A DNA stretch of 52,244 nucleotides. It comes from a virus. Location of the stretch: the IMG/VR virus record IMGVR_UViG_3300044210_000063; one strand, given 5' to 3'. The notes below the pieces were generated by a model. It made no database searches. It was not told where the DNA came from and was given only the letters and a program-made list of their open reading frames with translations. A program made the translations under genes and the position numbers. This document shows, piece by piece, positions 22,696 through 49,445 of the stretch. Every line of letters starts with the position of its first letter. Within the stretch, counting starts at the first letter, position 1.

Positions 22696-24150
22696 TTGGG
22701 TTTGGTGTATTATCAAAATACAATAGTGAGATTTGAGACTGGTTCACCGTATCATGGTTTCGTATACCAGGGGCCTCCGATAGACATAGGTCCGAGGGCT
22801 ATGCGGAAACTGCTATTCAGATGCCAGTGTGGCAAGGATAAGGAACTATATATCGGGGCAATTACCAAGGGAATGCAAAAAACATGCGGGGACTGCCGGA
22901 AGGTATGGGTGCGTCCGGGTGATCAATATCACCGGTTCATTTATGCAGGAGAAGCCTCATATCTGGCTCCCAACAGCTCTAAAAAGGCATTGTTCAAATG
23001 CCAATGCGGCAAGGTCAAATCAATCAGAATAAACAGTGTTACTAAAGAGCAAACTACCAGATGCGGCGCGTGCAACTTAGTGAAGCTTGATCCGGAGGAT
23101 CAATATTATTCTTTTGTCTATATAGGAGAACCAATACGAGTTCACGCGCATGGTACTTCTCGGCTGATGTTTCGGTGTCGATGCGGTAAGACTGTCACAT
23201 TGCGTATGAACGAGGTGACTTCTGGCCATCGAGTTTCGTGCGGGCACTGCAATGATTTTGTGCTGGACTATGGTGATAAATATTGTGGGTTCGTGTATGC
23301 GGGCAAACGAATTATAGTTTCGCCACGTAGCCACCAGCAACTCGATTTCAGGTGTAAATGCGGCACTATCAAGAAGATCAAGCTATGGGAGATATCTGAC
23401 GGAATAACTCGCACTTGCGGTCGTTGTAGCTATATTCAGTTGGATCCAGGCCAGTCATACTGTGGGTTCGTATATATCGGAAAACCAATCTGGCTCAGTA
23501 AATGGAGCCACCAACGGCTTTTGTTCCGGTGTAAATGTGGACAGCCCAAAAGCATCATGTTGTCGAGTTTGACGTCCGGCAATACAAAGACATGCGGTGC
23601 ATGTCGTGGAACAGTATATGAATGGTATGTTAAGAATCGTGAAATGTTGGAAGCTATGCGTGCTCCAATTACTTTGGATAGTCTGCCTCAAGGTGGAGTA
23701 ATATTCACTTCACCTATTACGAACATCGCTAAATCTACGCCTGCAATCTGTCCGGCATGCGGTGCATCTTACAAGCCAAGATTTAGCGATGTTCGTCGTG
23801 GACGATCACTGACTTGTGGGTGTGTATATAATAGAATATCATCCTATAACTATGAGATTGCTAGTCTTGTAGCTTCAGTCGGGTTCAGAGTCATGATGGA
23901 GTTTAAGCTTGGCAAGTATTCATATGATATACATGTGGAAGAGACCCCCATCCTTATTGAATATGATGGAAAGAAATGGCATGATACGCAATATGCTGCC
24001 GATCTTGATCTGCGCAAGTCAAAATTGGCAGCTGAGCATGGATATGAATTGATTCGGATTACAGAGGCTGATTGGCGGGACCATCCCGCAGAAACACAGA
24101 CTCATATTTTAAAGGTACTGTCACAGTATGCTGCTCCAACAACTGGATGA
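22696..24150 (+). CDS. paralog A of a mobile-looking family: 5 tandem Cys4 zinc-ribbon modules + Zn-ribbon + Vsr/DUF559-like PD-(D/E)xK endonuclease domain
   Basis: Five ~60-aa repeats F(R/K)CxCG-x12-VT(S/K)G-x3-(T/S)CGxC-...-FVY(A/I)G. Then CPACG...LTCGC and YDIHVEETPILIEYDGKKWHD...DLRKSKL...GYELIRI. Its 3' end overlaps the polA start by 23 nt. Confidence 0.8.
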   Translation: MGLVYYQNTIVRFETGSPYHGFVYQGPPIDIGPRAMRKLLFRCQCGKDKELYIGAITKGMQKTCGDCRKVWVRPGDQYHRFIYAGEASYLAPNSSKKALFKCQCGKVKSIRINSVTKEQTTRCGACNLVKLDPEDQYYSFVYIGEPIRVHAHGTSRLMFRCRCGKTVTLRMNEVTSGHRVSCGHCNDFVLDYGDKYCGFVYAGKRIIVSPRSHQQLDFRCKCGTIKKIKLWEISDGITRTCGRCSYIQLDPGQSYCGFVYIGKPIWLSKWSHQRLLFRCKCGQPKSIMLSSLTSGNTKTCGACRGTVYEWYVKNREMLEAMRAPITLDSLPQGGVIFTSPITNIAKSTPAICPACGASYKPRFSDVRRGRSLTCGCVYNRISSYNYEIASLVASVGFRVMMEFKLGKYSYDIHVEETPILIEYDGKKWHDTQYAADLDLRKSKLAAEHGYELIRITEADWRDHPAETQTHILKVLSQYAAPTTG

Positions 24151-26989
24151 CCGTAAGGACATCATCCGAGATTGGATGGTGGATTATAAATTCCACCTAG
24201 TTCAGACCGTTCTTCAGCTGAAGAAGCTGGTGGATTATTGCATACAACGAGGACTTTATGCCCTCGATCTCGAGACTACTGGAGTTGACAATCGAGTCTA
24301 CCAAGACGAATATTTTGAAGACGGTATCATAACTCGTCATGGTATAAGGACCATTGATAGAGTGGTTGGGGTCTGTCTATCATTCGACGGGACAAATGGA
24401 TATTATGTCCCGCTTTCTCATGAACCGGACGATTCTGGAAATTTGCCATGGGATGAATCTTGGGATGAGATCCAGAGGTTGGTGTGGAGCCAAGCACGTG
24501 CAATCTTCCATAATGCTAAGTTTGACTGCGAGTTCCTTTACCCTCTGACAAATAAGGACTTCTGGAAGAAGAATGAATATGAGGATACCTATCTTATGTC
24601 TAAGGTATCCTCACCGCTTAAAAGCCAGCCCAACGGTCTTAAGCCTCTATCCAAATTGCACTTCGGCATTGATATGATTGAGTTAGACGATCTTTTCTGT
24701 CCGGAGATGAAGATCCAACTCAAGCGTGAGAAGCAAGGATATAACTTTGGAGTACTTCATCCGCGAGAAGGTCTTGAATATGGGTGCTCAGACGGTATTT
24801 TTACTTATAAGTTATATTCAGTCCTGCGTGAAAAATTATCAGACACTGATCTACCTATTTACGATTTAGAAAAATCTTTCTGCAACATATTGCGTAAGTT
24901 AGAACGTAACCAGGTGCATGTTGATGTGGAGCGCCTAAATCAACTTGAGGTTGAGTGTCGCGCGGAATTGCAGCGTGTCGGTGATGTCATTCGTGGGATG
25001 ATTGAGAAGCGTAGTCATAACACTGGTAAATGGCTGACGCTCAATGTTGGATCTGTTCAGCAGTTATCATCAGCACTTATTACAGATCCTGAGGGTCTGA
25101 AGCTCAAGCCGACAGCAGAGATGATCGCAGAGGCAGGAGGAACTGGCGAATGGGATAGCGGCGGCGGTGGTGGTGGTGGTGGTGACGATGACGATGAAGA
25201 TGGGGATGAGGAGGAGAAAAAGAAATACTCGTTGAAAGATGAAGCTCTGAAATCTTTGCATCGAGCATATGCTGATCGTCTATCGGTGCAACGCCCTGGT
25301 GTTGTAGACAAAGATGGAAAACCAAAGCTAGATAGTCTTTTTGAACTCGTACTTGAATACCGACATTACGAGAAGATGCTCGGGTCGTTTTTAACAAAGT
25401 TATCGCGAGCTGTAGATCGGTATGGGAATGTACGACCAAATTTCAACCAAATGGGGACAGATACCGCGAGACTCTCGTCAAGGGCTGGCAAGATTGAGGA
25501 TGGATATTCTGGTATCAATTTTCAAGGAATCCCACGGGATTCCGATGAGGATAAACCAGAATTATTCAAGCAAATCAGGACGGTAATAATTCCGCGCGAT
25601 GGTTGGATACTGGTAAAGCTTGACTTCGCTGGCGAGGAACTTCGTGTTGTTACTAATCTTTCGGGTGATCCGATCTGGACAGATTCATTCTTGAACAAAG
25701 ATGGTGACGTGCATTCAATTACAGCACGTACACTGTTCGGCAAGGATGAAGTTAATAAAGACGAGCGTAATCGCGGTAAACGCTGCAATTTCGCGTTTAT
25801 TTATGGTGGGGGTGCAGGCGCGATTCAGCGCAACGTTGGTTGTTCCATTGAAGACGCCGGTAGGCACATGGAGAATCTGCGACAGGCTGTACCCGTGCTA
25901 ATGGGGTATGTTGATCATCAGAAGAGATTCGCGCATAAACATAAGTGCATTTTTACAGCTTATGGTCGGCGTGTTCCCATTCCAATGATAGATTCGCCAA
26001 TACGCGCCTTGCGTTCTAAGGCGGAGCGGTGCGCTATTAATTACACAATCCAGTCAACCTCTGCAGACGTCTTGAAATACGCAATGTGTTTTGTTGATAA
26101 GAACATCCGGGCTCTAGGCTGGGAGGACCGGGTTCGATATGTGCTAACCGTACATGATGAGGTTGTATATGAGGTTCGACCGGAATACCTCATGGAGATT
26201 GTACGTAAGCTTGATGAATGGATGACCTTTCCATGGAAGCTTCCGAAGCCACATGGCCGCGACTGGGTGGTGCCGCTTCTCACCGAGCCCGGGATTGATT
26301 GTAACTGGAAGGCTCGCTATGACTATTTCGAGATGGTGGACGGCACGCCAGTGAAGCCATCGGAGATTGGCCCAGATGGGGAGTACAAGGGTAAGCTCAA
26401 GAAGGGCCGCTACTTTGCCGATGGGCGCATCTACCAGGAGCCTCCGGACTTCCTGAAGCCGTGGATCCACCGCCTTCGGCCCCTTTCGGCCGGTCCTGAG
26501 CCTGCTCTTCCGTCCCATGAATCGCTTCCGGCTGAGCCCGGAGCCGCTGTCTTGCCTGATTTGCCGCCTTCCAAACCCGCAGAACACGGCTCATCTGGTC
26601 CGATCGATGAAGCCCCGCTCAGTAAACTCTTGCCAGCGGAGCCTATCCTTGGCTCCCTGAGCACTCTGTCGCTCTCCACGGATCCGCCCCCGCCGCTCCC
26701 CCCGCCGCTCCCCCCGCCGCTCCCCCCGCCGGCCTCTCCGCAGCCAAAAAAGGTGCAGGACAATGCCGTTACGAATACTTCGGGTGAGACCGTCTTACGC
26801 TGGACCATCCGGTCCGTGCTGAACGACATGGCGATTCGCAAGCTCAAGGCCGCGTGCCTGTTAGCACCGGGCAACATGTCGTTGCGCGTGGTACTGCCCG
26901 ATGGTAGCGTCCTCATTCAGGAGAAGAGCATGCCGTTGGTCGACAAGGATTGCTTTCTCTCGTATGCACGCTTATTGGGTATCGGGTGA
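24128..26989 (+). CDS. polA: family-A DNA polymerase with N-terminal 3'-5' proofreading exonuclease, acidic/poly-Gly insertion and Pro-rich C-terminal extension
   Basis: Exo I YALDLETTG. Motif B RGKRCNFAFIYGGGAGAI. Motif C LTVHDEVVYEV. Insertion DSGGGGGGGGDDDDEDGDEEEKKK. About 270 aa follow motif C, including (PPLP)x3. Confidence 0.9.
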   Translation: MLLQQLDDRKDIIRDWMVDYKFHLVQTVLQLKKLVDYCIQRGLYALDLETTGVDNRVYQDEYFEDGIITRHGIRTIDRVVGVCLSFDGTNGYYVPLSHEPDDSGNLPWDESWDEIQRLVWSQARAIFHNAKFDCEFLYPLTNKDFWKKNEYEDTYLMSKVSSPLKSQPNGLKPLSKLHFGIDMIELDDLFCPEMKIQLKREKQGYNFGVLHPREGLEYGCSDGIFTYKLYSVLREKLSDTDLPIYDLEKSFCNILRKLERNQVHVDVERLNQLEVECRAELQRVGDVIRGMIEKRSHNTGKWLTLNVGSVQQLSSALITDPEGLKLKPTAEMIAEAGGTGEWDSGGGGGGGGDDDDEDGDEEEKKKYSLKDEALKSLHRAYADRLSVQRPGVVDKDGKPKLDSLFELVLEYRHYEKMLGSFLTKLSRAVDRYGNVRPNFNQMGTDTARLSSRAGKIEDGYSGINFQGIPRDSDEDKPELFKQIRTVIIPRDGWILVKLDFAGEELRVVTNLSGDPIWTDSFLNKDGDVHSITARTLFGKDEVNKDERNRGKRCNFAFIYGGGAGAIQRNVGCSIEDAGRHMENLRQAVPVLMGYVDHQKRFAHKHKCIFTAYGRRVPIPMIDSPIRALRSKAERCAINYTIQSTSADVLKYAMCFVDKNIRALGWEDRVRYVLTVHDEVVYEVRPEYLMEIVRKLDEWMTFPWKLPKPHGRDWVVPLLTEPGIDCNWKARYDYFEMVDGTPVKPSEIGPDGEYKGKLKKGRYFADGRIYQEPPDFLKPWIHRLRPLSAGPEPALPSHESLPAEPGAAVLPDLPPSKPAEHGSSGPIDEAPLSKLLPAEPILGSLSTLSLSTDPPPPLPPPLPPPLPPPASPQPKKVQDNAVTNTSGETVLRWTIRSVLNDMAIRKLKAACLLAPGNMSLRVVLPDGSVLIQEKSMPLVDKDCFLSYARLLGIG
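26690..26725 (+). repeat. 12-bp x3 repeat CCGCCGCTCCCC encoding (PPLP)3 in the polA C-terminal extension
   Basis: Seen directly, in frame. Confidence 0.8.
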
Positions 26990-28767
26990 AGCTGTTCGTT
27001 GTTAAAGGGGATAGGGCAGGGAGCCTGACATATGCGGGTGACAGGTCGGAGCTTAGCACGTGCAGCCTTAAGAAAGACCTGTTCCGGTGCGCATGCGGCA
27101 CGGTGAAACTTTTCCGTACTGCATATGCATACTCTGGCAGGAGCAAGACTTGCGGCGAGTGCCATGCACGGCCCGCCGAATGGTGGGATCGCAAGTTCGG
27201 CAGTCTCAGGCTGGCTGTTCCAGTCAAACTTCACGAGTTTTCAAACAAAAGAAAAGATTTTCGGTGCGACTGCGGCAGAGTATTGGCGCTCAGAGTAAGC
27301 CATGTTACGTCCGGACTGCAGCGGACGTGCGGCTGCTGCCAGCTCATGGGAGCGTCTTGGTGGGAAGCCAGCGTCTTCGGCCAGCTCCGGTTGGCTGTTC
27401 CTGAGGATTTGCACGTTGGGTCCAATCAAAAGAAACAATTCCTCTGCAGTTGCGGGCGAGTCAAACGGCTGCCGGTATATGCAGTGGTCGCGGGCCGCGT
27501 GAAGACCTGCGGCGAGTGTAATGTGAAACCCGCCGAATGGTGGAAAGGCAGAGTATTCGGTCGCCTATCAATAAACCAGCCCGAGCCACTGACTTTTGGA
27601 TCCCATGAACGCCGCATGTTCCAGTGCGGCTGCGGGAATCAGTGCATAGCACGGGTGAACTTGGTTACAAGCGGCAAAAAGCTGTCCTGCGGGAGGTGTC
27701 GGGACCAGGTGCATGGTTGGTACCAAGACAACCTTTCCAAGTTGGCTGCTATGCGGTTCCCCATAGCTCCGCAGGACATGCCGATCGGCGGTCCGAGGCC
27801 GCTGGAAACGATTTTAAACAGAAGGAGCCCGTTCCGGGCTGTGTGCCCCATATGTCAGTCCGAGTATGCGCCTCGGTGGGAGTTTATCAAGAGAGGAATA
27901 TCACTTACATGTGGATGTGCTGGCGGGGTCTCGTCGACCCAGAATCGGGAGGTGGCCGGGTTCATCCGTCAGCTTGGGGTTGATCTAGTTACGGAATATC
28001 CGGTCGGGAACAAGCGGTTCGACATATTCGTGCCGTCCTGCAATCTATTGATTGAGTTGCAAGGGTTGCACTGGCATTCCCAGATCGGAGCGCGGCAGCG
28101 AGACCGAGAGAAGTATGGGGTGGCTGTACAGGCTGGGTATCAGTTCATGGCCTTCTTTGAAGATGAGTGGAGACATGCGCCGGAGAAGGTGAAGGCTTTG
28201 ATTCACAACCGGCTGGGTTTAGTTCACAGCATCAAGCTGCGTCCCCCTCAGTGCGGGATCCACCCGGTCCCCTCACCGGAGGCCGATCCCTTTTACGACA
28301 GGTTCCACTACATAGGGCCCTGCAGGCCCAAGGTCTCCTATGGGGCTTTTCTCCGGGATCGCCTGGTGGCTTGTATCTCCTTCTCCCACCCGACCAGGCA
28401 GTCCAGGCACCCATGGGAATTGGTAAGGATGGCTTCAGATCCGGAGTATAGGGTCCATGGGATCTGGAGCAAGCTTCTGAAGATTTTCTGCACTGAGTAC
28501 AGACCGGAATCCATAGTCTCGTTCTCGGATAACCGCCTTTTTTCAGGTGGAGTCTATGAAAGAATAGGCTTCTCCTACGATGGGGACGTTCCTCCGGATT
28601 ACTACTGGGTGAAGGGACAACGCAGGTTCCACAAGTCCGGCCTCAGGAAGAAGGGAGAGGAGAGGGTTTCCGGGCTCACCGAGGCCCAGCTCAGAGAAGC
28701 TCAGGGGTACCGGAAGATATGGGACCTTGGGAAGAAGAGATGGGTTTTTCGTTGGGCTGACGATTAG
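26950..28767 (+). CDS. paralog B: 4 zinc-ribbon modules + Vsr-like nuclease + C-terminal GNAT-like domain
   Basis: Repeats FRCACG...TCGEC etc. RFDIFVPSCNLLIELQGLHWHS. C-terminus LVRMASDPEYRVHGIWSKLL...FSDNRLFSGGVYERIGF resembles GNAT motifs A/B. The whole gene is GC-rich relative to the background. Start uncertain; the ORF-track TTG overlaps polA by 40 nt. Confidence 0.8.
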   Translation: MLSLVCTLIGYRVKLFVVKGDRAGSLTYAGDRSELSTCSLKKDLFRCACGTVKLFRTAYAYSGRSKTCGECHARPAEWWDRKFGSLRLAVPVKLHEFSNKRKDFRCDCGRVLALRVSHVTSGLQRTCGCCQLMGASWWEASVFGQLRLAVPEDLHVGSNQKKQFLCSCGRVKRLPVYAVVAGRVKTCGECNVKPAEWWKGRVFGRLSINQPEPLTFGSHERRMFQCGCGNQCIARVNLVTSGKKLSCGRCRDQVHGWYQDNLSKLAAMRFPIAPQDMPIGGPRPLETILNRRSPFRAVCPICQSEYAPRWEFIKRGISLTCGCAGGVSSTQNREVAGFIRQLGVDLVTEYPVGNKRFDIFVPSCNLLIELQGLHWHSQIGARQRDREKYGVAVQAGYQFMAFFEDEWRHAPEKVKALIHNRLGLVHSIKLRPPQCGIHPVPSPEADPFYDRFHYIGPCRPKVSYGAFLRDRLVACISFSHPTRQSRHPWELVRMASDPEYRVHGIWSKLLKIFCTEYRPESIVSFSDNRLFSGGVYERIGFSYDGDVPPDYYWVKGQRRFHKSGLRKKGEERVSGLTEAQLREAQGYRKIWDLGKKRWVFRWADD

Positions 28768-29048
28768 CCGTGGCTCTGCCCGGTGCCTGGGCGGACAGTC
28801 GTGGCTGCCTCCAGCTGGCGCTCGAAGTCATTAGCCGCTTGTTCATATCCAGCCGCTGCTGCTACTAGTACGGCCAGACCGTGCTGCACTATAGCTTGTT
28901 GTTCCTCATCCAAACTTTTGCTCAGTAGCAGATGTCGCTCACGAACAATAAGGTCGTGTATCCCCTCGCAAATTTGCCGGGCTCCAAGCCCCTTTGCCAC
29001 AAGCAGAATGTCGCATTTCAGTTCTTCAGGCAGTTCGAACTCATTCAT
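28764..29048 (-). CDS. small hypothetical protein (94 aa)
   Basis: Occupies the gap between paralog B and the dCTP deaminase. The alternative + strand reading here is low-complexity and not credible. Confidence 0.4.
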   Translation of the reverse strand: MNEFELPEELKCDILLVAKGLGARQICEGIHDLIVRERHLLLSKSLDEEQQAIVQHGLAVLVAAAAGYEQAANDFERQLEAATTVRPGTGQSHG

Positions 29049-29093
29049 TAATTATAAGACACAGTACTTTTCGAGAGTGGGTGTAAAGTTGGA

Positions 29094-29763
29094 AATGCAA
29101 TACGGCGTACTCTCTGGCAGTGAAATTCTTCGGACCATCAAGACTGGCGAAATAGTAATTGATCCGTTTGAAGTAGACAACATCAAGTACGAAGATCGTA
29201 TCAACTCTGCATCATACGACCTGACCCTTGGTCCACATGTGGCGGTGTATTCATCCGTAGTAACTGCTGACTGGGGATGTCGTATAGGCGGTGTGCCTGG
29301 TGAGCGTGTACGCGTGGACTGTCAGCATTTGAAGCTTCCACCGGTGCCCTGTCTTGATGCAGCACAGGAAAATCCTGTGGAGCGTTATGAAATGGATAGT
29401 CGTGGGTTCATGCTTATGCCAGGCATAGGTTACTTAATGCACACAGTTGAACGTATTGCTACAAACAAATATATTCCGATTATCGATGGTAAATCATCAA
29501 TTGGTAGGCTTTTTTGCTTTGTACATGTAACGGCGGGTCTTGGTGATCCTGGGTTTGACGGCCAGTATACGTTGGAGGTATTGGTTACGCATCCACTAAT
29601 CGTATACCCAGGCATGCGATTCTGCCAGATTCGGTTTTTTACTATTGTTGGGGAGGCACAAAATTACCAAAAGGCTGGACATTATACAGGCAAACTTGCT
29701 ATAGGCCCAGTCCCATCGCGCTCATGGACACAATTTTCAGTGCATGAAAATAATCACAAATGA
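29094..29763 (+). CDS. dcd: dCTP deaminase (dUTPase-fold)
   Basis: GKSSIGRLFCFVHVTAGLGDPGFDGQYTLEVL matches E. coli Dcd [31 protein letters not shown]. The ORF-track start 28783 adds about 100 aa of Ala/Ser/Cys-rich sequence, judged spurious; ATG 29094 gives 223 aa. Confidence 0.8.
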
Positions 29764-35043: not shown

Positions 35044-35372
35044 CTCCGGACGATGCCTGGCGTATTTTAGGCGTAGTTCCAGCTAGTGTATACGCCCGGA
35101 TCATTGACCGGCCGCGACATGAACGAGCAGTTGCAGCTGAGGAAGAACTCATTGAAGCTAGACGACTTGCTAGACAGCTTCAAGGCAGATGCCATCCTGA
35201 TAGAAGTAAAGATGGAGATGAGAAACGATTCAGGGAAATTAGTGAAGCACTTGAGACGCTTGTTCACGCAACAGAGAACTTCAAGATAAGATTAGCGGAA
35301 GTCATTTCTGAAGAAGAGAGTGCAATCGCACGCAAGAGCCGAACCGCGGTTTTTATTAGGATGGAAAAATGA
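35040..35372 (+). CDS. small J-domain protein (DnaJ-like co-chaperone, J-domain only)
   Basis: DAWRILGVVPAS...HPDRSKDGDEKRFREISEALETL has the J-domain HPD and helix pattern. Confidence 0.7.
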   Translation: MTPDDAWRILGVVPASVYARIIDRPRHERAVAAEEELIEARRLARQLQGRCHPDRSKDGDEKRFREISEALETLVHATENFKIRLAEVISEEESAIARKSRTAVFIRMEK

Positions 35373-36151
35373 TGCGTCTCATCTCTTGCATTCAGTATCG
35401 TCCGCGCTTGGCTCGCTGCCGAGCGGATGTTGGAGACAATCTGCGCCGAGCGACCCCGCTCTTAGATCAGGCAGCACGAATTGGATCTCATTTGATTGTG
35501 CTACCAGAATTATGCTTTACGGGGTATTCTTTTCTTGAACGCAATGAGGTGGCTCAGATTGCGGAACGATTTGATGGTCCTACCTTTCTGGCTATGCGCT
35601 CGATTGCCATACAAGCCATGGCTTATGTGAGTTGGGGTTATCCCGAAGTAGACGAGAACGGTAGTCTATACAACTCTGGTAGTGTGGTGGCTCCGAATGG
35701 CGACCTTGTGACTCGATATCGCAAGATCAATTTATGGGGAAATGATTTCTTTTGGGCCATATCTGGAACAGAGGCTGCACCAATTGTACAAACCGACATA
35801 GGTTTACTATCCTTGATCATTTGCAGAGATCTACGTGACAAGATTCCAGCAAATATCCCACGATTTGGATCCGAGGCTGGTAAGAGACACTATGAAGGTC
35901 GTCGTGTGGACGTGGTAGCAGCAAGTACGGACTGGGGTAAGGGAGGTTTTCCAGCAAATGCTTGGATGGACTTTGCTGCCGACAACCGATGCATCCTAGC
36001 TGTTGCAAATAGATGGGGAGAGGAGAAGAATGCTTCTTTCATCCAGGATTTCGGACAGGGCGGAAGTATTATTATCGAACCTAATTGGAAGGTTCATATT
36101 GGTGGATTGGAATTTGGTGCTAATTGCGTAGTATCTGCTCATATAGTATAA
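35369..36151 (+). CDS. carbon-nitrogen hydrolase (nitrilase superfamily)
   Basis: E-K-C triad context: VLPELCFTGY, RYRKINLW, ICRDL. Confidence 0.75.
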   Translation: MMRLISCIQYRPRLARCRADVGDNLRRATPLLDQAARIGSHLIVLPELCFTGYSFLERNEVAQIAERFDGPTFLAMRSIAIQAMAYVSWGYPEVDENGSLYNSGSVVAPNGDLVTRYRKINLWGNDFFWAISGTEAAPIVQTDIGLLSLIICRDLRDKIPANIPRFGSEAGKRHYEGRRVDVVAASTDWGKGGFPANAWMDFAADNRCILAVANRWGEEKNASFIQDFGQGGSIIIEPNWKVHIGGLEFGANCVVSAHIV

Positions 36152-36160
36152 TCGTAGTGC

Positions 36161-36203
36161 TGTGTATCATTGTTTTCAATATAATTAAAAACAATGATAC
36201 ACA
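36161..36203 (+). terminator. terminator-like hairpin after the CN hydrolase gene
   Basis: TGTGTATCATTGTTTT-CAATATAATTAA-AAACAATGATACACA. Perfect ~15-bp arms, AT-rich loop, no clear U-tract. Confidence 0.35.
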
Positions 36204-36294
36204 GCAAGTACTGATTCTACAGAACAAAATTGCGCCAATTCAATTTTGGCCAATATCACACCAATTTGTTAGGCGTCTATTTGTTTATTCATGT

Positions 36295-36714
36295 ATGGTC
36301 CAAGGTCCCGGTCTACCTCCAAAGCCAATTGACACAGATCCTGCGTGTTATTGCATCAGCATGACTGAGTTAAATGATCCAGTCAATCCATGGAAGACTG
36401 TGTGCACAGTATGCACAGGGGACTATCAGAACAATATCTGGTATCAAGCACGAGCTGATGGTTTTGCAGGGCGCTGCATTTTGGATGAGCTAACATACGC
36501 AGATGTATATGATGTGCTTCTCCGGGTTCCCGGTGCTGCCGAAGATTTGGCACGTATCACAAGTGATCCAAGATTACTCATGCTTGCCCGCGAGGTCAAA
36601 GTGATGGTGCCTGAAATTACCGAAAGTGAGCGGGTTGCGAAGAGAATCAACGGATCTGCTCCGCCATTCTATACGGTTCTACGTGGTAATACCGACGGCA
36701 GTGTGTTGCGCTAA
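36295..36714 (+). CDS. hypothetical Cys-containing protein (start placed after the hairpin)
   Basis: The ORF-track start 36124 would run through the hairpin and overlap the hydrolase; ATG 36295 (MVQGPGLPP) is more plausible. Confidence 0.4.
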   Translation: MVQGPGLPPKPIDTDPACYCISMTELNDPVNPWKTVCTVCTGDYQNNIWYQARADGFAGRCILDELTYADVYDVLLRVPGAAEDLARITSDPRLLMLAREVKVMVPEITESERVAKRINGSAPPFYTVLRGNTDGSVLR

Positions 36715-36722
36715 TTCTTGAA

Positions 36723-36968
36723 CTATTTTCTGTGAACGGTCTTGACTACTTCTTCACGAATACGCTCAAGACCAAGTATTTCCGGGAAAGATAGTGAATT
36801 GCTTTGGATGCCATTAGCATGTTGGATCACTAACTTGTCGCCGGGTGACAGTCCTAGGCGAGTAAGAAGCCGCGCAATCAGAACCTCTTCGTCGATATAA
36901 GGACTATCCCACGGAGTGAACTTCAACGATTCGTTGTGTTGATTGGCTTCTTGACTTGAAATTTTCAC
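36723..36968 (-). CDS. hypothetical protein (81 aa)
   Basis: ATGA-coupled downstream of paralog C. Confidence 0.45.
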   Translation of the reverse strand: MKISSQEANQHNESLKFTPWDSPYIDEEVLIARLLTRLGLSPGDKLVIQHANGIQSNSLSFPEILGLERIREEVVKTVHRK

Positions 36969-38563
36969 AGCTTTGAGTTTCTTTTTTGAAGGAGCCTTGT
37001 TACTAATGGGCCGCCATAATACCCAGCAAGGGCACGGGTTTCGACGATTTTAGCTTTTTCGCTAACTACCCTTATTAAATCAATATCAGTGGTGTAGGCC
37101 AGAATAACAGCGTAAATCAAGCTATCGGCGATTTCGGACTCAATGGCGGCTTTCTTCGCTTCAACCGTGTCACCGTTCCGAATGGCTCGCAGTAGTGCAC
37201 CAGCAAGTTCGCCCGATTCACCGACGAGGCCTAAGGCATAATAAATGAATGGGTCGTTACCATATGCCGCGTCAGGATCCATATTTTTGACTCGACATAT
37301 AACATGGTGCGCATTGATAGCTGCAGTAACAATATCTTCGTAGGAGTGTCTTAGTTCGTGGATTAAGGCATCTCGCCGCTTTATTAATGCTGCCTCGGTT
37401 TCTTCTGGCAGGCTGATTTGCATGATTTCGCTGATTTCATCCAGTTTTGCCCTGAGTTCTGCCTTAGTTCGATAGCTTCGGCCGATTCGTTTTCGTGTGT
37501 CTAGCTCCAACAGGAGGCTCTGCATAACGCTTTTTTTATTATGTATCCAGTCGTTTTCCTCTATGGTGAGGAATTTCAGCCCACTCACTTCGGCCAAGAA
37601 CCGCTTCTTAGTGTTCCGCCTTCGCGCGTCGTTGGACCGGTTGAACTCGATAAGCGTTTGAGACTCGTTGACGAACATGTCATATTTATGTCCGTAGAGC
37701 TTGTGCTCAAATACCACTGAGTAGCCATGCGCAATAAGCTGGTCAGCGATGCGATAGCATGGTATGGGTATTTGGTAATCCGCACAGCCGCACGTCAGCC
37801 CATGGCCTCCTTTGAGCCTGCTGATGGACGGTGTGTAAATACTACCACAAATAGGACATTTTGCCTTGAATCCCTTTGAATTTGTTAATATGCGTCCGAG
37901 CGGAATTGGTCCACCGGGAGGGAAGTTTTTGGGCTCAACTGGTGCCCGTAACGCCTGCAGCGCTTGCCGATTCTTATTATACCAATTTCGCACTGTTCGA
38001 GAGCAATGTCCACAATTGCGGGTACGTCCGGAGGTCACTGACTGAATCGATATTTCTTTCTTGCTGCCGCAGTCACACAGAAACATCGTCTTTTGTTTAG
38101 CGTGGCGATTGAGAGCACGGGGTGTTTCCAGCCGAAGGCATCCAAACCGCTGACTAGTCCACCATTCTGGATCCATCTCGTTGCATCTGCCGCATGTCAC
38201 AATTTTGTTGTGTACTACGTCGTAGATGGCTATTAGTTGCTCTTTACCACAATCACAAACAAACAGTTCTCTATCTTTACTGCCAGTACTTAACTGTTTC
38301 GGATGCCTGAGTCGCAGTTGACCGAACTTCTGTGTGATCCACCACTCCTTTGGCATTATACTGCATTGTCCACATGACTTGGTTTGGCCACGGGTGACAG
38401 ACGACACTTGCACGGTTTTATGCTTGCCACATTCGCAGACAAACACATGCTTTGCATGCGAATGTGGATTTAAATCCACTGGATGCAAAATGCGCAGCTT
38501 GCCAAACTTCTGTAGCGCCCACCACTCCTTGGAGTGAACTGTAGCACGCTCTCTAATAGTCAT
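36965..38563 (-). CDS. paralog C: 3 zinc-ribbon modules + Vsr-like nuclease + C-terminal MazG-like NTP pyrophosphohydrolase domain
   Basis: Repeats FVCECGKHKT...SCGQC etc. YDMFVNESQTLIEFNRSNDARRR. C-terminus ALGLVGESGELAGAL...ESEIADSLIYAVILAY is MazG-like and replaces the GNAT-like domain of paralogs B, D and E. Confidence 0.8.
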   Translation of the reverse strand: MTIRERATVHSKEWWALQKFGKLRILHPVDLNPHSHAKHVFVCECGKHKTVQVSSVTRGQTKSCGQCSIMPKEWWITQKFGQLRLRHPKQLSTGSKDRELFVCDCGKEQLIAIYDVVHNKIVTCGRCNEMDPEWWTSQRFGCLRLETPRALNRHAKQKTMFLCDCGSKKEISIQSVTSGRTRNCGHCSRTVRNWYNKNRQALQALRAPVEPKNFPPGGPIPLGRILTNSKGFKAKCPICGSIYTPSISRLKGGHGLTCGCADYQIPIPCYRIADQLIAHGYSVVFEHKLYGHKYDMFVNESQTLIEFNRSNDARRRNTKKRFLAEVSGLKFLTIEENDWIHNKKSVMQSLLLELDTRKRIGRSYRTKAELRAKLDEISEIMQISLPEETEAALIKRRDALIHELRHSYEDIVTAAINAHHVICRVKNMDPDAAYGNDPFIYYALGLVGESGELAGALLRAIRNGDTVEAKKAAIESEIADSLIYAVILAYTTDIDLIRVVSEKAKIVETRALAGYYGGPLVTRLLQKRNSKL

Positions 38564-39225
38564 GAAGCTGTCAGCTCCTGTCGGAAATTAGCCATGCACA
38601 TCTCATGATAAAGTTGGCTGAGCATTTGCATATACTTCCTGAACCGCGGAGGAGGCTTCTTGACAGGCATATCCAACATGTTTGAAGACATCGTATTCAT
38701 GTCGGCACGCATGCGTTCAAAGAACGGTTGGATTTCTTTATTGCCCCGACATTTCTCGCGCCATACATATTCATATACTGACAAAAAATCCGCTGCTTTC
38801 ACAACCGCCTTTATATACCATCCATAGCCATTGTTTTGCTCTACAGGCTCTTGGCTGAGATCAAGTATCCTTCGATCCATTTTAGCCAACACAGCTTGTT
38901 CAGCCTTACGGATGGTAGCTGGAAGCTCAGGAATGGCATATTTGAAGACACGTACTAATTCAGCTCCTAGGCAGTCGGCCATGTCATGCGTGAGCGCATG
39001 CAACATCAACGGAGCATCTAGGTTGCGTGGTCCTTCCATCTCCCGATGGATCATCATGGCATAGAGAACTGTCCAGAACAGGTGCTCAGCAGTGTTTTCG
39101 AAAACAGATACGGGAATGGACTGGTAGCGGGTAACGTAGCTTAGTCGTCGTACATCACTGGATGCAACGACTAATAATTTTGGCCAGCAGGGGCGGAGTG
39201 ACGTTGGCATGTTCCAAAAGTACAC
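38560..39225 (-). CDS. HD-domain 5'-deoxynucleotidase (YfbR-like)
   Basis: ENTAEHLFWTVLYAMMI...HALTHDMADCLGAELV has the H...HD...D pattern of the YfbR family. Confidence 0.6.
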   Translation of the reverse strand: MYFWNMPTSLRPCWPKLLVVASSDVRRLSYVTRYQSIPVSVFENTAEHLFWTVLYAMMIHREMEGPRNLDAPLMLHALTHDMADCLGAELVRVFKYAIPELPATIRKAEQAVLAKMDRRILDLSQEPVEQNNGYGWYIKAVVKAADFLSVYEYVWREKCRGNKEIQPFFERMRADMNTMSSNMLDMPVKKPPPRFRKYMQMLSQLYHEMCMANFRQELTAS

Positions 39226-40060: not shown

Positions 40061-40786
40061 TTGATAGACCGTACCCGTGTGACCATCACCCTTACGTTCC
40101 AGATTCCGTCCACAAACGTGCATCCGGTTGCCGCAGTGATGGACCTTACTGATGACCGGCCTTTGATTGGTTTGAGTCCTCCGCAGGTCGATGGTCTTGA
40201 CCTGCGGGAAGACGATCTAGTACTTAGGATCGTGCCTGATCAGATTGAGACGGGACCGTGGGTAGCTCATGCGGGTTTATGGACTCGTCCTGACTGGTTT
40301 AATGCCAGCGCTTATGCGGAAGGAACGATTCTCACCTGTAATCGTGGCACCAAATACCGCGGATCGGCATGGGCTATGCGGGGGACTATTCCCGGTCTTG
40401 ATATTGTGGGCACTGATTTCTTATGTGCCGATCCATTCTCAGGTCCTACAGGTCCAACAGGACCTCAGGGGTATCCGGGGACTACTGGAGGTGTAACTGG
40501 ATCAACGGGGCCACAGGGTGCCACTGGATTACAAGGAGATCCAGGTGTTACAGGTGCCACTGGACCACAAGGTGCCACTGGACCACAAGGTGCCACTGGA
40601 CCACAAGGTGCCACTGGACCACAAGGTGCCACTGGACCACAAGGTGCCACGAGCATATTACCGAGTGGAAGCGCTGGCGCTATTCTTTACAATGATGGTT
40701 CACAGTGGATTATACTGCCCTCTGGGGCTTCTGGAGCTGTACTCACCGCTCAGGGGGCCACGGGGCCAATTTGGGCGTTCTTGTAG
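40061..40786 (+). CDS. collagen-like triple-helix repeat protein (putative fiber)
   Basis: [29 protein letters not shown]...(GATGPQ)x5, Gly-X-Y over about 80 aa. 18-bp x5.5 DNA repeat at 40553-40651. Confidence 0.8.
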
Positions 40787-45827: not shown

Positions 45828-47177
45828 TTATTCAATTAGTTCCAAATTGGAACTAAGGGATGATTCGTCTATCCCCATGGTTTCTGCTGGAACTACTTCG
45901 GGCGGTTCTGAAGAACCATAATCCTGATCCATAGCATCGTCTGTGTTTCCACCTGCGACGGACATGGCATCTTCAGCCAGCTCGGCTAACTCTTCATCGC
46001 TTATATAGCGCAGCCCCTTAAGAATGTGTTCGACGCATAGATTACTGAGCTCTGCATATACTTTCGGCTGTGCTACCATGGCAGCTCGGAACTTCTCAAT
46101 GCCGATGGTTTCGATTTCTCCGGCACTGGAATGGAACCGAAATATATCTTGTTTCTTAGCATTCTTACTTTTCTTCACAATGTCGTATGCGATGGCTACG
46201 TTTAGCATTGTACGTAGCTCATCAATACCCACCCCATAGCGAATTGTGATAAGCCCAGAATGCCCGGTGCGTGCATCAATTTTATTTTTAATATTTTTGA
46301 TTTCCACATCCGTAGCAATCGGCACTTCTTCGTAATCTCTAGTGAGCGGGTTCCACCGTTTGGCTTTAACAGTCTGTTTTGGCTTCAACAAGACACGGTT
46401 CGATGACCAGAACTTCAGCGCGTTGCCGCCAGTAGTCGTCTTAAGGGCCTCTTCACTGAACCCAATAGCCCCAATTTTATCACGTGTTTGATTAAGAAAC
46501 ATCACGTGAGTACCGGTGTTCGATATGATGGATTGGAGCTTCGGCATCCAATTGGACATGAACCGTGGAACCTCAGCAATGCCTTGTTTTTCCTTCTCAT
46601 TCAAGACATTGCGTTCCCCTTCCCTCTTTGGTTGCAGACCTGCGACTGAATCGATTACTATAAAATTTATGCCTTGGATCGCCGCAGCATTCACGATTGC
46701 CTCGACTTCTTCGGCAAATCTAGGTGCTACACGGATAGCTCGTCCAGTTCCACCAAGTTCTGGTGGACGAAAGTCCGCTCCGAGTCGCATCGCATAAGCA
46801 TCAACAACTGCATGCTCGAGGTCAACGTATAATCCGGTTCCAGTTTCATTATTTGCTTGGAGTGCATGTCCAAGACCCATAAGCGCGATAGTAGATTTGC
46901 CTGAAGACTCACGGCCATAAATCTCGCTGATACGCCCGCACGGCCATCCGGGGCAGACGAATGATCCATCATCAAGCCTTGTTCCGCCGATGAGGAGATT
47001 TAGTACAGTCGAGCCAGTATTAATATACCCCAGGTTGCGATTCCATTCGACAACCGTATCCCGTAGGTTCAGGCGTTTCTCCAGGGTTGTTAGGAACCCT
47101 GCCATCTTCGGATGCCACTTGATTGGAGTGCTTTTTGACATGATTGATACTACACCAGACCCATCTCGTCTTTCCAA
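45828..47177 (-). CDS. recA: RecA/UvsX-like recombinase (divergent)
   Basis: GRISEIYGRESSGKSTIALM (compare GRIVEIYGPESSGKTTL), FIVIDSVAGL, TTGGNALKFWSS, NKIDARTG. The annotated 5' end overlaps paralog D by ~157 nt; the true start is probably an internal Met (47141 or 47105). Confidence 0.85.
   Translation of the reverse strand: MERRDGSGVVSIMSKSTPIKWHPKMAGFLTTLEKRLNLRDTVVEWNRNLGYINTGSTVLNLLIGGTRLDDGSFVCPGWPCGRISEIYGRESSGKSTIALMGLGHALQANNETGTGLYVDLEHAVVDAYAMRLGADFRPPELGGTGRAIRVAPRFAEEVEAIVNAAAIQGINFIVIDSVAGLQPKREGERNVLNEKEKQGIAEVPRFMSNWMPKLQSIISNTGTHVMFLNQTRDKIGAIGFSEEALKTTTGGNALKFWSSNRVLLKPKQTVKAKRWNPLTRDYEEVPIATDVEIKNIKNKIDARTGHSGLITIRYGVGIDELRTMLNVAIAYDIVKKSKNAKKQDIFRFHSSAGEIETIGIEKFRAAMVAQPKVYAELSNLCVEHILKGLRYISDEELAELAEDAMSVAGGNTDDAMDQDYGSSEPPEVVPAETMGIDESSLSSNLELIE
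45836..45856. promoter_or_regulatory. perfect palindrome TTAGTTCCAA-A-TTGGAACTAA (10-bp arms, 1-nt centre) at the recA 3' end, upstream of the ATPase gene
   Basis: Seen directly. The 1-nt spacer rules out a stable hairpin, so a dimeric protein-binding site is more likely. Confidence 0.35.
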
Positions 47178-48723
47178 AGTCCCATATTTTCCGATATCCC
47201 TGAGCTTCCCGCAACTCCCTCTCCGTCATACCTGATGCTTTTTCAGTATTCTTCTTCCGCAGAGACGACTTATGAAATCGCTTTCCTTGCTTCACCCAGT
47301 AATAATCGGGTAGAACTTGTCCATCACGTTGGAATCCCATCAAGCCGTAAACGGACCCTGTATATAATCTATTATCAGAGAAACTGACGATTGAGTACGG
47401 GGAGTGCTCTTGGATGAATATGTGAAGAAGCTTCGACCAGATACCATGTACTCGGTATGCTGGATTAGAGGTCATGCGCACTAATTCCCACTGATGCCTT
47501 GACTGTCTTGTAGGATGCGATAGGGACAGACAGGCGATCATAGATCCATTGAACAACACAGAATAGGATATTGTGGGTCGGCATGGTCCAATGTAATGGA
47601 ATTCCGCATGGAACCGGTCAGCTGTTGCAAAATCGACTGATTTAATGGAACACATGGTAGGACGCAGCTTGATGTGTTTGCTGCGACCGAGCCGATTACA
47701 TAATAGCGCCTCCACCTTTGTTCTACTGTGACGCCATTCATCCTCAAAGAGAGCGATGAACTCATATCCACTAGCAACAGCAGCTTTATACTTCCTGAGG
47801 TCTCTATCCCGTGAGTCTCTCGATGAGTGCCACCGTAGCCCGTTGAATTCTATGACTATGCATAAGCTCGGTATACCTATATCATATTTCCATTCTCCTA
47901 TGCTGTGTTCAAACACAGCTTGGATTCCAAGTGATGTGATAAACTCAATTAGTTGGTGCACCGGAGCTGACGTTTTATGACTAGTGCATCCGCAGGTGAG
48001 TGAGACTCCTCGTCTAATATTTTTCAGCAAAGGCTTGTATTCGAGCCCGCATAGTAGGCAACGTGCGCGAAATGGAACTGACAAACCAATAATGGGTTCC
48101 AGCGGCAGCATTGCGCCTGGCACGAAGTCGGTCGGGACAATCGGACATTTAAGCGCCATTAGTTCGTTGCGATGGCGCTCATACCACTGATATATATGAT
48201 CCCAGCATTTGCCACAAGAAGCAGTATTTCCCGTTGATACGGAATAGACGGCGGCATCTGTTTCATTACCACAGGTGCACACCCAGGTCAGTTTTTGGTG
48301 TGACTGCGGGAGTATCTTTTGCGGTCGTTTTATGTGCAGGTGCCCAAAGACCTTGTCTGTTGGATCAAATTCGCTGCATTTGCCACATGATGTCGTACGA
48401 CCTTGCACCACGGATTCGATCCTGGCCGTGGTTGTGTGTCCACATTCGCATACCCACCTGACGCGTTTACTCGACCCAGGCAGCGTATCAATAGGCATGC
48501 ACTGGCGGAGTTTTCCGAACCTACGAGTCGCCATTTCTGCTGCCGAAATCGTGCTACATTTACCGCACGATTTCGTATGGCCGGACAACACCTTGCGCAC
48601 CTCTGCCTGGCAAGTGCGTCCACATTCGCATGCCCAGATGACTTTGCGCCCTGATCCCTGGGTAACCTCCAGTATTTCTGTGCTGTGCAGACTACCAAAT
48701 CGGTCTTCTGGCACGACGATCAT
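47020..48723 (-). CDS. paralog D: 3 zinc-ribbon modules + Vsr-like nuclease + GNAT-like domain
   Basis: WACECGRTCQ...SCGKC repeats. KYDIGIPSLCIVIEFNGLRWHS. C-terminus LVRMTSNPAYRVHGIWSKLL...YGLMGF. Confidence 0.8.
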   Translation of the reverse strand: MIVVPEDRFGSLHSTEILEVTQGSGRKVIWACECGRTCQAEVRKVLSGHTKSCGKCSTISAAEMATRRFGKLRQCMPIDTLPGSSKRVRWVCECGHTTTARIESVVQGRTTSCGKCSEFDPTDKVFGHLHIKRPQKILPQSHQKLTWVCTCGNETDAAVYSVSTGNTASCGKCWDHIYQWYERHRNELMALKCPIVPTDFVPGAMLPLEPIIGLSVPFRARCLLCGLEYKPLLKNIRRGVSLTCGCTSHKTSAPVHQLIEFITSLGIQAVFEHSIGEWKYDIGIPSLCIVIEFNGLRWHSSRDSRDRDLRKYKAAVASGYEFIALFEDEWRHSRTKVEALLCNRLGRSKHIKLRPTMCSIKSVDFATADRFHAEFHYIGPCRPTISYSVLFNGSMIACLSLSHPTRQSRHQWELVRMTSNPAYRVHGIWSKLLHIFIQEHSPYSIVSFSDNRLYTGSVYGLMGFQRDGQVLPDYYWVKQGKRFHKSSLRKKNTEKASGMTERELREAQGYRKIWDFGKTRWVWCSINHVKKHSNQVASEDGRVPNNPGETPEPTGYGCRMESQPGVY

Positions 48724-49445
48724 GGCTGGCTCTCAAGGTCCTCCAGAAATTTCAGTAGTTCAGCCCGTATCGCTGATTTTTTTGGTAGGCTAACTGAGCC
48801 TTTAGGTACACGGCTTAGTTCAAAAAACCGGCTGTTTTCACGGAAAACATGCCCGATCCGTCGTGTTTTAACTCCAGTCAGCGTCTTAGCCTTTCTGGTC
48901 TTTAACAAAAACACGCGTTGCTCTGCTGGTGTAAGAACCGTTGGCGTTATGGAACCGTGGACAAGTTCAATGAGTCGGGCCGCAAAGAGAGCCGCCAAAT
49001 AAGCATCTGCCTCATTATTATCAATTACAGTAGGATCCATGGTATCGCGTTGCACGACCCGCTGCATGTCGAGCTTTGACATGTCACCTTTTTTCTTCAG
49101 GGGATCCCCTTTTGCGAGTGATTTCAGCGTTGATGGATCAAATAGCGCACAGTCTAGACGAGCTTCGAATGCTGGTACAAGCGAAAACATCATGAGACCA
49201 AAGTGAATTGTTTGAAACGGTCCTGCATGATAAGCCGGGCTTTCTATTCCAATAGCCTCCGGACGATATTCCTCGATCAGACTGGCTACGAGTGACTGGA
49301 AATGTAAAAACCGAGCCACCGGAACTGTCGAAGGCAAAGTACCTTCATGACCACTTGCGACTCTGCGGGCTAAACCGGAGGCTGTGGATTCGTGTACAGC
49401 CCAACCATAGGCCAGCAAGCTAGGATCGAGTCCTAGAGTTCGCAT
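48720..49445 (-). CDS. ruvC: RuvC-like Holliday junction resolvase
   Basis: LGLDPSLLAYGWAV (Asp-7 motif), IGIESPAYHAG (Glu), VIDNNEADAYLAALFAA (compare RuvC DADAADALAIAL). Confidence 0.7.
   Translation of the reverse strand: MRTLGLDPSLLAYGWAVHESTASGLARRVASGHEGTLPSTVPVARFLHFQSLVASLIEEYRPEAIGIESPAYHAGPFQTIHFGLMMFSLVPAFEARLDCALFDPSTLKSLAKGDPLKKKGDMSKLDMQRVVQRDTMDPTVIDNNEADAYLAALFAARLIELVHGSITPTVLTPAEQRVFLLKTRKAKTLTGVKTRRIGHVFRENSRFFELSRVPKGSVSLPKKSAIRAELLKFLEDLESQP

Follow-up and report, generated by a model that had tools for sequence, protein, structure and literature searches.

The virus record IMGVR_UViG_3300044210_000063 of IMG/VR, analyzed here over 52,244 nt (hereafter, the window), contains a single uninterrupted open reading frame (ORF) of 532 aa on its minus strand (36965..38563). 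This ORF probably represents the fusion of a free-standing homing endonuclease gene (HEG) of the Zn-finger and Vsr-like (EDxHD) kind with a complete gene for a MazG-like deoxynucleoside triphosphate (dNTP) pyrophosphatase. On this reading, the window gene is a decaying mobile gene and not a new two-function enzyme. From N- to C-terminus, its product comprises three Zn-finger repeats of the treble-clef type, followed by a Zn ribbon, a nuclease core that is Vsr-like (EDxHD, I-Bth0305I type) and a MazG-like C-terminus (Table 1). A protein identical to it (P0001) is recorded from a JGI metagenome contig of 52,244 bp, so that the window corresponds to this entire contig. The evidence is computational and comprises this architecture, the fusion of a whole gene, the identity of the locus, remnants of the displaced gene in relatives, catalytic lesions in the nuclease, an intact MazG motif and a series of decaying copies.

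The MazG-Like C-Terminus

An earlier note on this DNA, made from the sequence alone, had read the C-terminus of the fusion protein as MazG-like, and the peptides that it quoted (...PFIYYALGLVGESGELAGAL... and ...EAKKAAIESEIADSLIYAVILAY) are present at aa ~438-490. Profile, fold and metal motif all agree with that assignment. Among single-sequence profile matches, PF03819 (MazG) reached an E-value of 0.0084 at 16.8 bits (overall 16.8-19.6 bits, below the curated cut-off of 22 bits), PF12643 (MazG-like) 0.015 (15.9-17.6 bits, cut-off 27 bits) and PHROG 229 ("MazG-like pyrophosphatase") 2e-7. At the family level, ortholog P0011 exceeded the PF03819 cut-off (26.3 bits), PF12643 was matched by 17 of the 22 family members at E<=0.01, and a family profile of the MazG part matched the dCTP pyrophosphatases DCTPP1/RS21-C6 in the PDB at 1e-6, followed by iMazG, AF1178 and YpjD. 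Although the single-sequence match is weak, the family-level match is solid, and the C-terminus of the window protein is thus MazG-like. The outcome that the earlier note had named as a refutation, a lack of MazG-family similarity in profile searches, was therefore not observed. The AlphaFold (AF2) model of this part (mean predicted local distance difference test, pLDDT, 93.7) had the all-alpha helical-bundle fold of the MazG type. Its best Foldseek matches were DCTPP1, iMazG, AF1178 and YpjD (probability 1.0; template-modeling (TM) score 0.63-0.68 on the target); RS21-C6 and MazZ were also matched, and the probability across the matches was 0.84-1.0. The metal ligands E449, E452, E477 and D480 (E-x-x-E...E-x-x-D) are intact in the window copy. 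The motif shows no variation across 22 homologs, fused and standalone alike, and aligns to that of DCTPP1.

The C-terminal MazG', as the working part of the protein, presumably hydrolyzes a (d)NTP to (d)NMP and pyrophosphate. The cyanophage MazG reportedly does not hydrolyze (p)ppGpp. Together with the nearest structures, which are dNTP (dCTP) pyrophosphatases and not the (p)ppGpp-linked E. coli MazG, this does not favor a role in alarmone control. The nearest solved enzymes prefer dCTP or 5-modified dCTP, according to the titles of their PDB entries.

A Whole MazG Gene at Its Own Locus

When aa 355-532 were used as the query of an exhaustive HMMER search, two kinds of MazG relatives emerged. 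The closest (54-61% identity) were all joined to Zn-finger sequences, and many others were free-standing proteins of 148-165 aa with 39-46% identity, including P0054, P0059, P0064, P0066 and P0078. The alignment of the standalone proteins starts at their residues 2-6 ("M..ETKSEIRARIDEL"), extends to the "GYYGGP" end and covers aa ~365-525 in the window protein, and the MazG part of the fusion begins as a standalone gene does ("..TKSEIRARIDEL"). The N-terminal helical hairpin, which had resembled a "linker," is part of the standalone MazG protein. The sole internal low-confidence segment of the full-length AF2 model, aa 359-363, lies at the HEG/MazG junction. Because the standalone proteins align end to end and the model breaks at the junction, a whole gene rather than a domain was fused.

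The set of standalone MazG genes from IMG/VR comprised 11 loci (9 distinct) on phage contigs of 36-436 kb. In 8 of the 9 distinct huge-phage loci, the gene was found directly downstream of, and co-oriented with, an HD gene, and the standalone loci share the Peptidase_C15 (PGP_C15), orf196 and CN_hydrolase flanks of the window. The product of the HD gene is YfbR-like (Pfam 1.6e-11; PDB 2paq, 1.4e-5) and is nearer YfbR than any other solved protein. Of the 10 distinct contigs with the fusion, 9 have it downstream of this HD gene. In the window and at least 9 further distinct contigs, the endonuclease gene is located between HD and MazG and joined to the latter in frame. The HD gene is a conserved neighbor of both fused and standalone MazG, and the HD-MazG pair was found in about 20 huge-phage loci. 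The simplest reading of these sequences is that an HD gene followed by a standalone MazG gene of ~160 codons formed the ancestral pair, and that an endonuclease gene was later placed between the two and joined to MazG. The presence or absence of the endonuclease at a conserved locus (pair uninterrupted in 8/9, interrupted in 9/10 others), as seen with mobile insertions, is a property of the family and is not evidence on the window copy itself.

Full-length orthologs of the fusion (P0002-P0016, at least 15 proteins) were 41-60% identical, and MazG is thus also carried by homologs in other genomes, a point that the earlier note had proposed to check. That note had further proposed that MazG replaces a GNAT-like domain by exchange of C-terminal effector domains. 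MazG does occupy the same position as the GNAT/Mom-like domain of the long paralogs described below, but it is a complete gene at its normal locus and not a shuffled effector.

Short N-terminal extensions were noticed on three standalone-type MazG proteins, P0051 (CxxC...CGC), P0055 (Cys-rich) and P0062 (hydrophobic). That of P0051 could have been left behind by a further endonuclease fusion.

A Nuclease Core That Has Lost Catalytic Residues

The family profile of the nuclease core matched one solved structure convincingly, that of the catalytic domain of I-Bth0305I (3R3P, E 7e-8), and the full-length AlphaFold model matched 3r3p in Foldseek with TM scores of 0.71-0.75; 3hrl and 1cw0 were matched too. 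The PHROG labels for this Zn-finger nuclease family are "HNH/homing endonuclease" (phrog_559 and phrog_3339). In the profile alignment to 3R3P, the Asp of the family YD motif, the His of the WH motif and the Asp of the RD motif correspond to D196, H213 and D222 of I-Bth0305I, respectively. In I-Bth0305I, H213 is the proposed general base, and the variants H213A and D222N are catalytically inactive (PMC3239194).

The motif IE(Y/F)xGxx(W/Y/F)H...RD was kept in 47 of 50 aligned family members. Three members, the window copy, P0015 and P0016, clearly depart from it, and each of them is a MazG fusion. The sequence of the window copy is "LIEFN-----RSNDARRRNTKK," in which the five residues G-x-x-(W/Y/F)-H, including the general-base His, have been removed by an in-frame deletion of 15 nt. 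No His was found between E306 and K319 of the window protein, and the motif was not found in another frame. N317 replaces the RD aspartate of the family, while D295 (the D196 equivalent) and E306 are retained. The catalytic motif is intact in paralogs A, B and D of the window and in orthologs P0002-P0013. Hence, the nuclease of the window protein is very probably dead with its fold retained, as judged from these residues. The earlier note had suggested that this copy may couple DNA targeting to control of the nucleotide pool or of alarmones. With the catalytic His deleted and the catalytic Asp replaced by Asn, there is no active couple of DNA-targeting nuclease and NTPase in the window, and the alarmone part of the suggestion fares no better, for the structural reasons given above.

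In contrast to the catalytic residues, the Zn ligands are complete. All Zn-finger Cys (C43/45/64/67, C103/105/124/127 and C163/165/184/187) are kept in the window copy, which has 16 of 16 Zn-ligand cysteines in the alignment. The Zn-finger repeats are presumed to be the DNA-recognition module of the protein.

Conservation and the Series of Decaying Copies

On average, pairs of orthologs share 73% identity in MazG, about 50% in the fingers and nuclease and 40% in the N-terminal hairpin. Only in the nuclease core is the window copy less conserved than the other orthologs (39 vs. 50%). These values suggest that selection sits on the MazG part.

The relatives with fused-type MazG form a series of progressive in-frame losses in the endonuclease part, with MazG intact in all of them. 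One finger repeat is lost in P0013, P0016 is without its Zn ribbon and a portion of the nuclease core, and the nuclease cores are degenerate in P0015 (416 aa) and P0048 (399 aa). In P0049 (285 aa), two fingers are joined straight to MazG with no nuclease core, and P0050 (244 aa) consists of one finger and an intact MazG. The homolog search revealed no representative of the fused-type MazG clade without any finger, and the ortholog alignments revealed no conserved internal start ahead of the MazG part. MazG' probably depends on the translation start of the relic, which would explain why the relic stays open and shrinks only by in-frame deletions.

Remnants of the Displaced Gene

Pieces of standalone-type MazG were found beside the fusion in three relatives, L003, L018 and L001. 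In L003 (5747-5965), a 69-codon ORF between the HD gene and the fusion encodes the 5' half of MazG ("MNGLNETKSEIRAHIDEL...RSHKAICEVK*"). Internal MazG codons ~45-90 ("...HKKFCEIKKMGEKAAFGHDPAIFYGLALSGECG") remain just 5' of the fusion in L018 (2841-2990), and the final ~26 codons ("KKAKIVVKRAIDGYYGGPLTK*") remain right past the fusion stop in L001 (7644-7730). A hidden Markov model (HMM) built from standalone proteins only recovered these remnants with independent E-values of 2e-11 (L003), 4e-18 (L018) and 6e-9 (L001). The remnants of L003 and L018 are 56-63% identical to standalone proteins vs. 38-49% to any fused MazG. A candidate 5' remnant in L021 and an 18-codon one in L001 were not significant by HMM and were left uncounted. 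In the window, the remnant scan and the HMM search found no remnant of a resident MazG. Given that the non-coding fragments are still recognizable while the functional genes flanking them have diverged to 36-45% identity between genomes, the replacements appear to be comparatively recent and separate.

Neighbor-joining (NJ) bootstraps were computed for the four fusion-bearing loci with long flanks. Monophyly of the fusion loci was recovered in 100% of the replicates for MazG, 1% for HD, 2% for orf196, 10% for PGP and 65% for CN_hydrolase, and the mean identities agree with this incongruence between the MazG and flank trees. The HD gene of L003 grouped with that of a standalone-bearing phage. 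Moreover, short endonucleases of the same family are found directly downstream of standalone MazG in L010 (4775-5767) and L016 (4566-5540), and a second endonuclease of this family is found directly 3' of the MazG 3' remnant in L001 (7733-9013). The occurrence of same-family endonucleases downstream of MazG in these three loci identifies the MazG locus as a recurrent landing site on both flanks. Together, the sequence data point to a mobile endonuclease-plus-MazG cassette that would overwrite the resident gene, and we lean toward ongoing or recent mobility of this cassette.

Proposed Model and Alternative Explanations

We propose that, in one lineage of elements, a HEG came to lie upstream of a diverged MazG copy, MazG', without an intervening stop codon. 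The HEG::MazG' unit would take the place of the resident MazG, which in some genomes has visibly been overwritten, with 5', internal or 3' fragments left behind. The cassette would thereby carry its own working copy of the gene that it displaces. The intact relatives would cut the standalone-type MazG allele, and MazG' would resist cleavage. The element of the window would have passed its mobile phase, with a dead nuclease and no resident remnant. As MazG' lacks its own start, the N-terminal relic of 360 aa would stay open and only in-frame changes would be tolerated. The window protein would now work only as a dNTP pyrophosphatase, and the adjacent HD enzyme may take deoxynucleoside monophosphate (dNMP) to the nucleoside, giving a putative dNTP to dNMP to nucleoside route. 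It is possible, although we would put it at somewhat short of an even chance, that the intact relatives are natural homing cassettes of the "cleave-and-rescue" style, in which the EDxHD nuclease cuts the standalone MazG of competitors and spreads with an in-frame, resistant and functional copy. If so, the cassette could home into coding sequence without an intron or intein, and the window copy would be a fixed, nuclease-dead end-stage.

Several observations weigh against this model. The breakpoints of the remnants differ by locus (codon ~69, ~90, and ~18-28 plus ~134) and there is no single precise insertion site, so that the target site cannot be named, while classical homing would predict one site. 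In the HD tree, the window clusters with L001 and L004, and for these three a single old fusion that was inherited vertically suffices, without any mobility. The trees are crude NJ trees of sequences with 35-60% identity. A scan of IMG/VR found no fusion-type MazG but only distant generic MazG genes, and the sample consists of about 20 metagenomic contigs; a metagenome scan with the fused-type profile yielded two short contigs. Finally, the kept Zn-finger Cys, and the presence of at least one finger throughout the fused-MazG clade, could mean that the N-terminal part has a selected (DNA-binding) role.

The grouping in the HD tree also bears on the alternative that the fusion is ancient and vertically inherited, i.e., that the ancestor of a phage subclade acquired a HEG between its HD and MazG genes and the stop codon of the HEG was lost, with neither cassette mobility nor targeting of MazG. 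The fixed position downstream of HD in 9/10 fusion loci, the 65% bootstrap for the fusion-bearing clade with CN_hydrolase and the lack of a remnant in the window would all be expected from it. It leaves unexplained, however, why standalone-type remnants with 56-63% identity lie beside fusions whose flanks are only 36-45% identical, which argues for recent and separate replacements, why the HD gene of L003 groups with a standalone-bearing phage, and why the same endonuclease family is found downstream of MazG in L010, L016 and L001, which argues for a repeated target. We therefore regard a single ancient fusion as unlikely. Quite unlikely is a functional protein with two activities that arose by modular exchange of C-terminal effectors, in which the Zn-finger/nuclease module directs the MazG NTPase to DNA or to stress signaling. 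Preservation of the one-ORF fusion in at least 15 diverged proteins and full conservation of the Zn-finger Cys with at least one finger in every representative of the fused-MazG clade fit such a protein. So does a rough NJ tree built from the endonuclease part, in which the MazG clade nests among Mom-like-tailed members, indicating that C-terminal replacement did occur in evolution. Its MazG part, however, is the complete resident gene at the normal locus. Catalytic residues are lost not only in the window copy but also in P0015, P0016, P0048, P0049 and P0050 while MazG remains at ~73% identity, retention of the N-terminus follows from MazG having no separate start, and the nearest structures are dNTPases and not alarmone hydrolases.

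A separate MazG start would exist if the endonuclease and MazG were two genes translated independently, e.g., from the ATG found at aa 381 of the window copy, and the open junction were incidental. M381 is, however, unconserved and falls within helix 1 of the standalone-type protein, and several orthologs, P0002 among them, lack a Met around the junction. Neither a ribosome-binding site nor a promoter could be recognized convincingly ahead of M381, and at least 15 contigs, independent and diverged, keep one unbroken frame, so that we give this explanation hardly any credence. A scan for promoters and terminators around the fusion gene was uninformative. The fusion of an HEG with a complete MazG gene, followed by decay of the nuclease, is the explanation that we prefer.

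Relation to Known Systems

The EDxHD (Vsr-like) family of homing endonucleases was first described in PMC2677866, and its prototype is I-Bth0305I (PDB 3R3P; PMC3239194). The core of the Zn-finger family resembles it in profile and fold, and its conserved residues (D...E...H...D) match D196, H213 and D222 in the alignment. Like I-Bth0305I, the members studied here are phage-borne and located beside replication or recombination genes (polA and recA-like for the paralogs in the window). Unlike I-Bth0305I, they have a DNA-binding part of three to five treble-clef repeats plus a Zn ribbon instead of NUMOD motifs and are free-standing, not encoded within an intron or intein. The window copy differs further in that it has no H213 equivalent and carries Asn at the D222 position, so that the catalytic residues that define EDxHD enzymes are incomplete, and in that MazG is fused to it.

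With DCTPP1/RS21-C6, iMazG, YpjD, AF1178, phage MazG and MazZ, the MazG part shares the all-alpha bundle, the E-x-x-E...E-x-x-D site and a core of ~100 aa. Its identity to these enzymes is, however, only 25-28%, and it has two additions specific to the family, an N-terminal helical hairpin of ~60 aa and a C-terminal GYYGG(P) motif that does not vary. MazZ of Z-genome phages is matched weakly (E 0.29). A Z-genome, which had been considered because of this match and of the match of the HD protein to the PHROG "dATP triphosphohydrolase," was dropped as unsupported. No PurZ or other base-modification gene was found among the scanned window ORFs of at least 120 aa.

By analogy, the closest precedent is the mobile-ORF (mORF) gene hybrid of fungal mitochondria, with its polarity reversed here. 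Such hybrids are known for atp6 of Allomyces and for atp6, atp9, cox2 and nad3 of Glomus (PMC3630166). As in these hybrids, an endonuclease ORF is in phase with a carried host coding sequence, here in the window and at least 15 homologs. A foreign copy that replaces the native gene, with a displaced fragment adjoining, is observed in relatives L001, L003 and L018, and the incongruence between the MazG and HD trees agrees with it; the window itself has no remnant. Unlike the present arrangement, in which the endonuclease is upstream and the copy complete, the mitochondrial element is located downstream of the host gene and brings along no more than its 3' end. In addition, the present host is a huge phage, the nuclease is EDxHD rather than LAGLIDADG or GIY-YIG, and the system is known here from sequence alone.

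Full-text searches found neither a homing endonuclease-MazG fusion nor such an arrangement in phages in the searchable literature. In T4-like phages, homing endonucleases of the free-standing kind (seg and mob, with intronless homing) are inserted between conserved genes, show presence/absence polymorphism and decay to defunct copies. They are normally separate intergenic ORFs and are not known to bring an in-frame replacement copy of a neighboring gene. The elements described here resemble them as free-standing nucleases between conserved phage genes and differ from them in carrying an in-frame MazG copy.

Genomic Context and Paralogs

The genes of the window are typical of an uncultured huge phage and include those for a family-A DNA polymerase, a RecA-like protein, an intein-containing DnaB, DnaJ and a sigma factor. 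GenBank phage matches of the window, by DNA or protein, were restricted to uncultured phages of 485-735 kb. Against GenBank phages, blastn with 8 kb around the fusion gene returned only a collagen-repeat match to huge uncultured phages, and tblastn with the MazG part returned no match and thus no annotated relative. The fusion gene is tightly packed between its neighbors by ATGA and GTGA overlaps on both sides, with the stop of the HD gene overlapping the fusion start (tcATGAct).

Table 1. Coordinates of the fusion gene, its parts, its immediate neighbors and its paralogs in the window.
Feature	Position	Strand	Size or location	Basis or remarks
Whole fusion ORF, relic homing endonuclease plus MazG-like pyrophosphatase	36965..38563	-	532 aa	
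Three ~60-aa treble-clef Zn-finger repeats, EWW..FG.L....CxCG...CGxC	37994..38527	-	aa 13-190	Alignment; DUF4379 matches in paralogs/homologs; AF2 pLDDT ~90
Helical segment and Zn ribbon (CPxC...CGC)	37778..37993	-	aa 191-262	Alignment; AF2 model
Vsr-like/EDxHD nuclease core, fold kept, active site broken	37499..37777	-	aa 263-355	Pfam MTES_1575 E 7e-5; profile and Foldseek to 3r3p
Nuclease lesions ("LIEFN|R", "RRRN317")	37613..37654	-	aa 308|309 and N317	Family alignment; residue roles from PMC3239194
Fusion junction	37472..37498	-	aa 356-364	Low-confidence model break aa 359-363; standalone homologs align from aa ~365
Complete MazG-like all-alpha NTP pyrophosphatase, C-terminal GYYGG motif	36989..37471	-	aa 365-525	Homologs, profile, AF2, metal motif
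YfbR-like HD 5'-deoxynucleotidase gene	38560..39225	-	Upstream partner	Pfam, PDB profile match, synteny
Downstream ORF, GTG start overlapping the TGA of the fusion	36723..36968	-	81 aa	Pfam/PHROG scans: no known family
Paralog A, short endonuclease, Zn fingers and intact nuclease core, ends after core	22696..24150	+	Directly upstream of polA	
Paralog B, endonuclease with GNAT/Mom-like C-terminus, intact nuclease motif	26950..28767	+	Directly downstream of polA	
Paralog D, endonuclease with Mom-like C-terminus, intact motif	47020..48723	-	Between RecA-like and RuvC-like genes	

A tblastn search of the window with the fusion protein identified three paralogs with 32-37% identity. All four copies share at least three ~60-aa Zn-finger repeats (DUF4379), the CPxC...CGC ribbon and the Vsr-like core (REase_MTES_1575/DUF559). 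Acetyltransf_1 matches paralog B above threshold (23.3 bits, cut-off 20.7), homologs of paralogs B and D match the Pfam family "Mom" (PF25680; P0022 with 28.9 bits vs. a cut-off of 27.1), and paralog D aligns with paralog B across the whole C-terminus. These matches bear out the statement of the earlier note that the other long copies carry a GNAT-like module; the third paralog is short. Further fusions to host genes, suggested by the JGI names "SprT protease" and "PP-loop ATPase," proved spurious, as Pfam reveals only Zn fingers and nuclease in these proteins.

The gene polA (24128-26989, +) has endonuclease paralogs on both sides, and the downstream one overlaps its end by 40 nt. The GC content is 0.56-0.58 across 26-29 kb compared to ~0.47 in most of the window, which hints at a recent import of DNA. 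Paralog D overlaps the RecA-like ORF by ~158 nt, and its RuvC-like neighbor is a weak match (45828-49445, -). I-Bth0305I likewise targets a phage recA (PMC3239194). A DnaB-like helicase gene (13854-16727, +) contains an intein with a LAGLIDADG endonuclease (DnaB_C 5e-14, LAGLIDADG_3 9e-16, Intein_splicing 4e-5), which is another selfish element on the same contig.

Among the other genes, a dCTP deaminase-like gene (28783-29763, +; 326 aa with an N-terminal extension) accompanies the HD and MazG-like enzymes. The gene orf196 (36124-36714, +) has homologs in L001-L016 and is a conserved neighbor that is always found near a CN_hydrolase gene; its similarity to the MazG core (E 0.02-0.11) comes without the metal motif and was treated as probably due to chance. 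A SNF2-family helicase (10827-12962, +) has a SNF2 domain of ~400 aa vs. a profile of 290 positions, suggesting an insertion. This helicase, a collagen-repeat protein (40061-40786, +), a pyroglutamyl peptidase (C15; 39384-40043, -) and a carbon-nitrogen hydrolase (35369-36151, +) are encoded by genes that are conserved in related huge-phage contigs. Unexpected for a phage contig is an 865-aa protein (16879-19476, +) with the shoulder domain of the Major Vault Protein (7e-28) and a vault repeat (5e-9).

Implications

A protein composed of a nuclease and MazG resembles a new effector of defense or counter-defense, but the present one is best read as a selfish element fused to a gene for phage housekeeping. 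Where huge-phage metagenomes carry annotations such as "very-short-patch-repair endonuclease / NTP pyrophosphatase," these should be taken to mean MazG together with the relic of a mobile element. The HD-deoxynucleotidase and MazG genes are flagged as a conserved gene pair of huge phages, whose nucleotide substrate is of interest.

HEGs with a replacement copy of the gene that they displace are known mainly from fungal mitochondria. The cassette described here provides a well-documented phage example, in which the replacement copy that comes with the HEG is complete. The late stages of the homing cycle, fixation and then decay, can be followed among the relatives in copies that look active, copies that are point-inactivated and copies that become shorter step by step. 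The decay is confined to in-frame deletions, since a useful downstream enzyme presumably depends on the start codon of the relic. The fusion gene is not a new biochemical system but an instructive evolutionary case.

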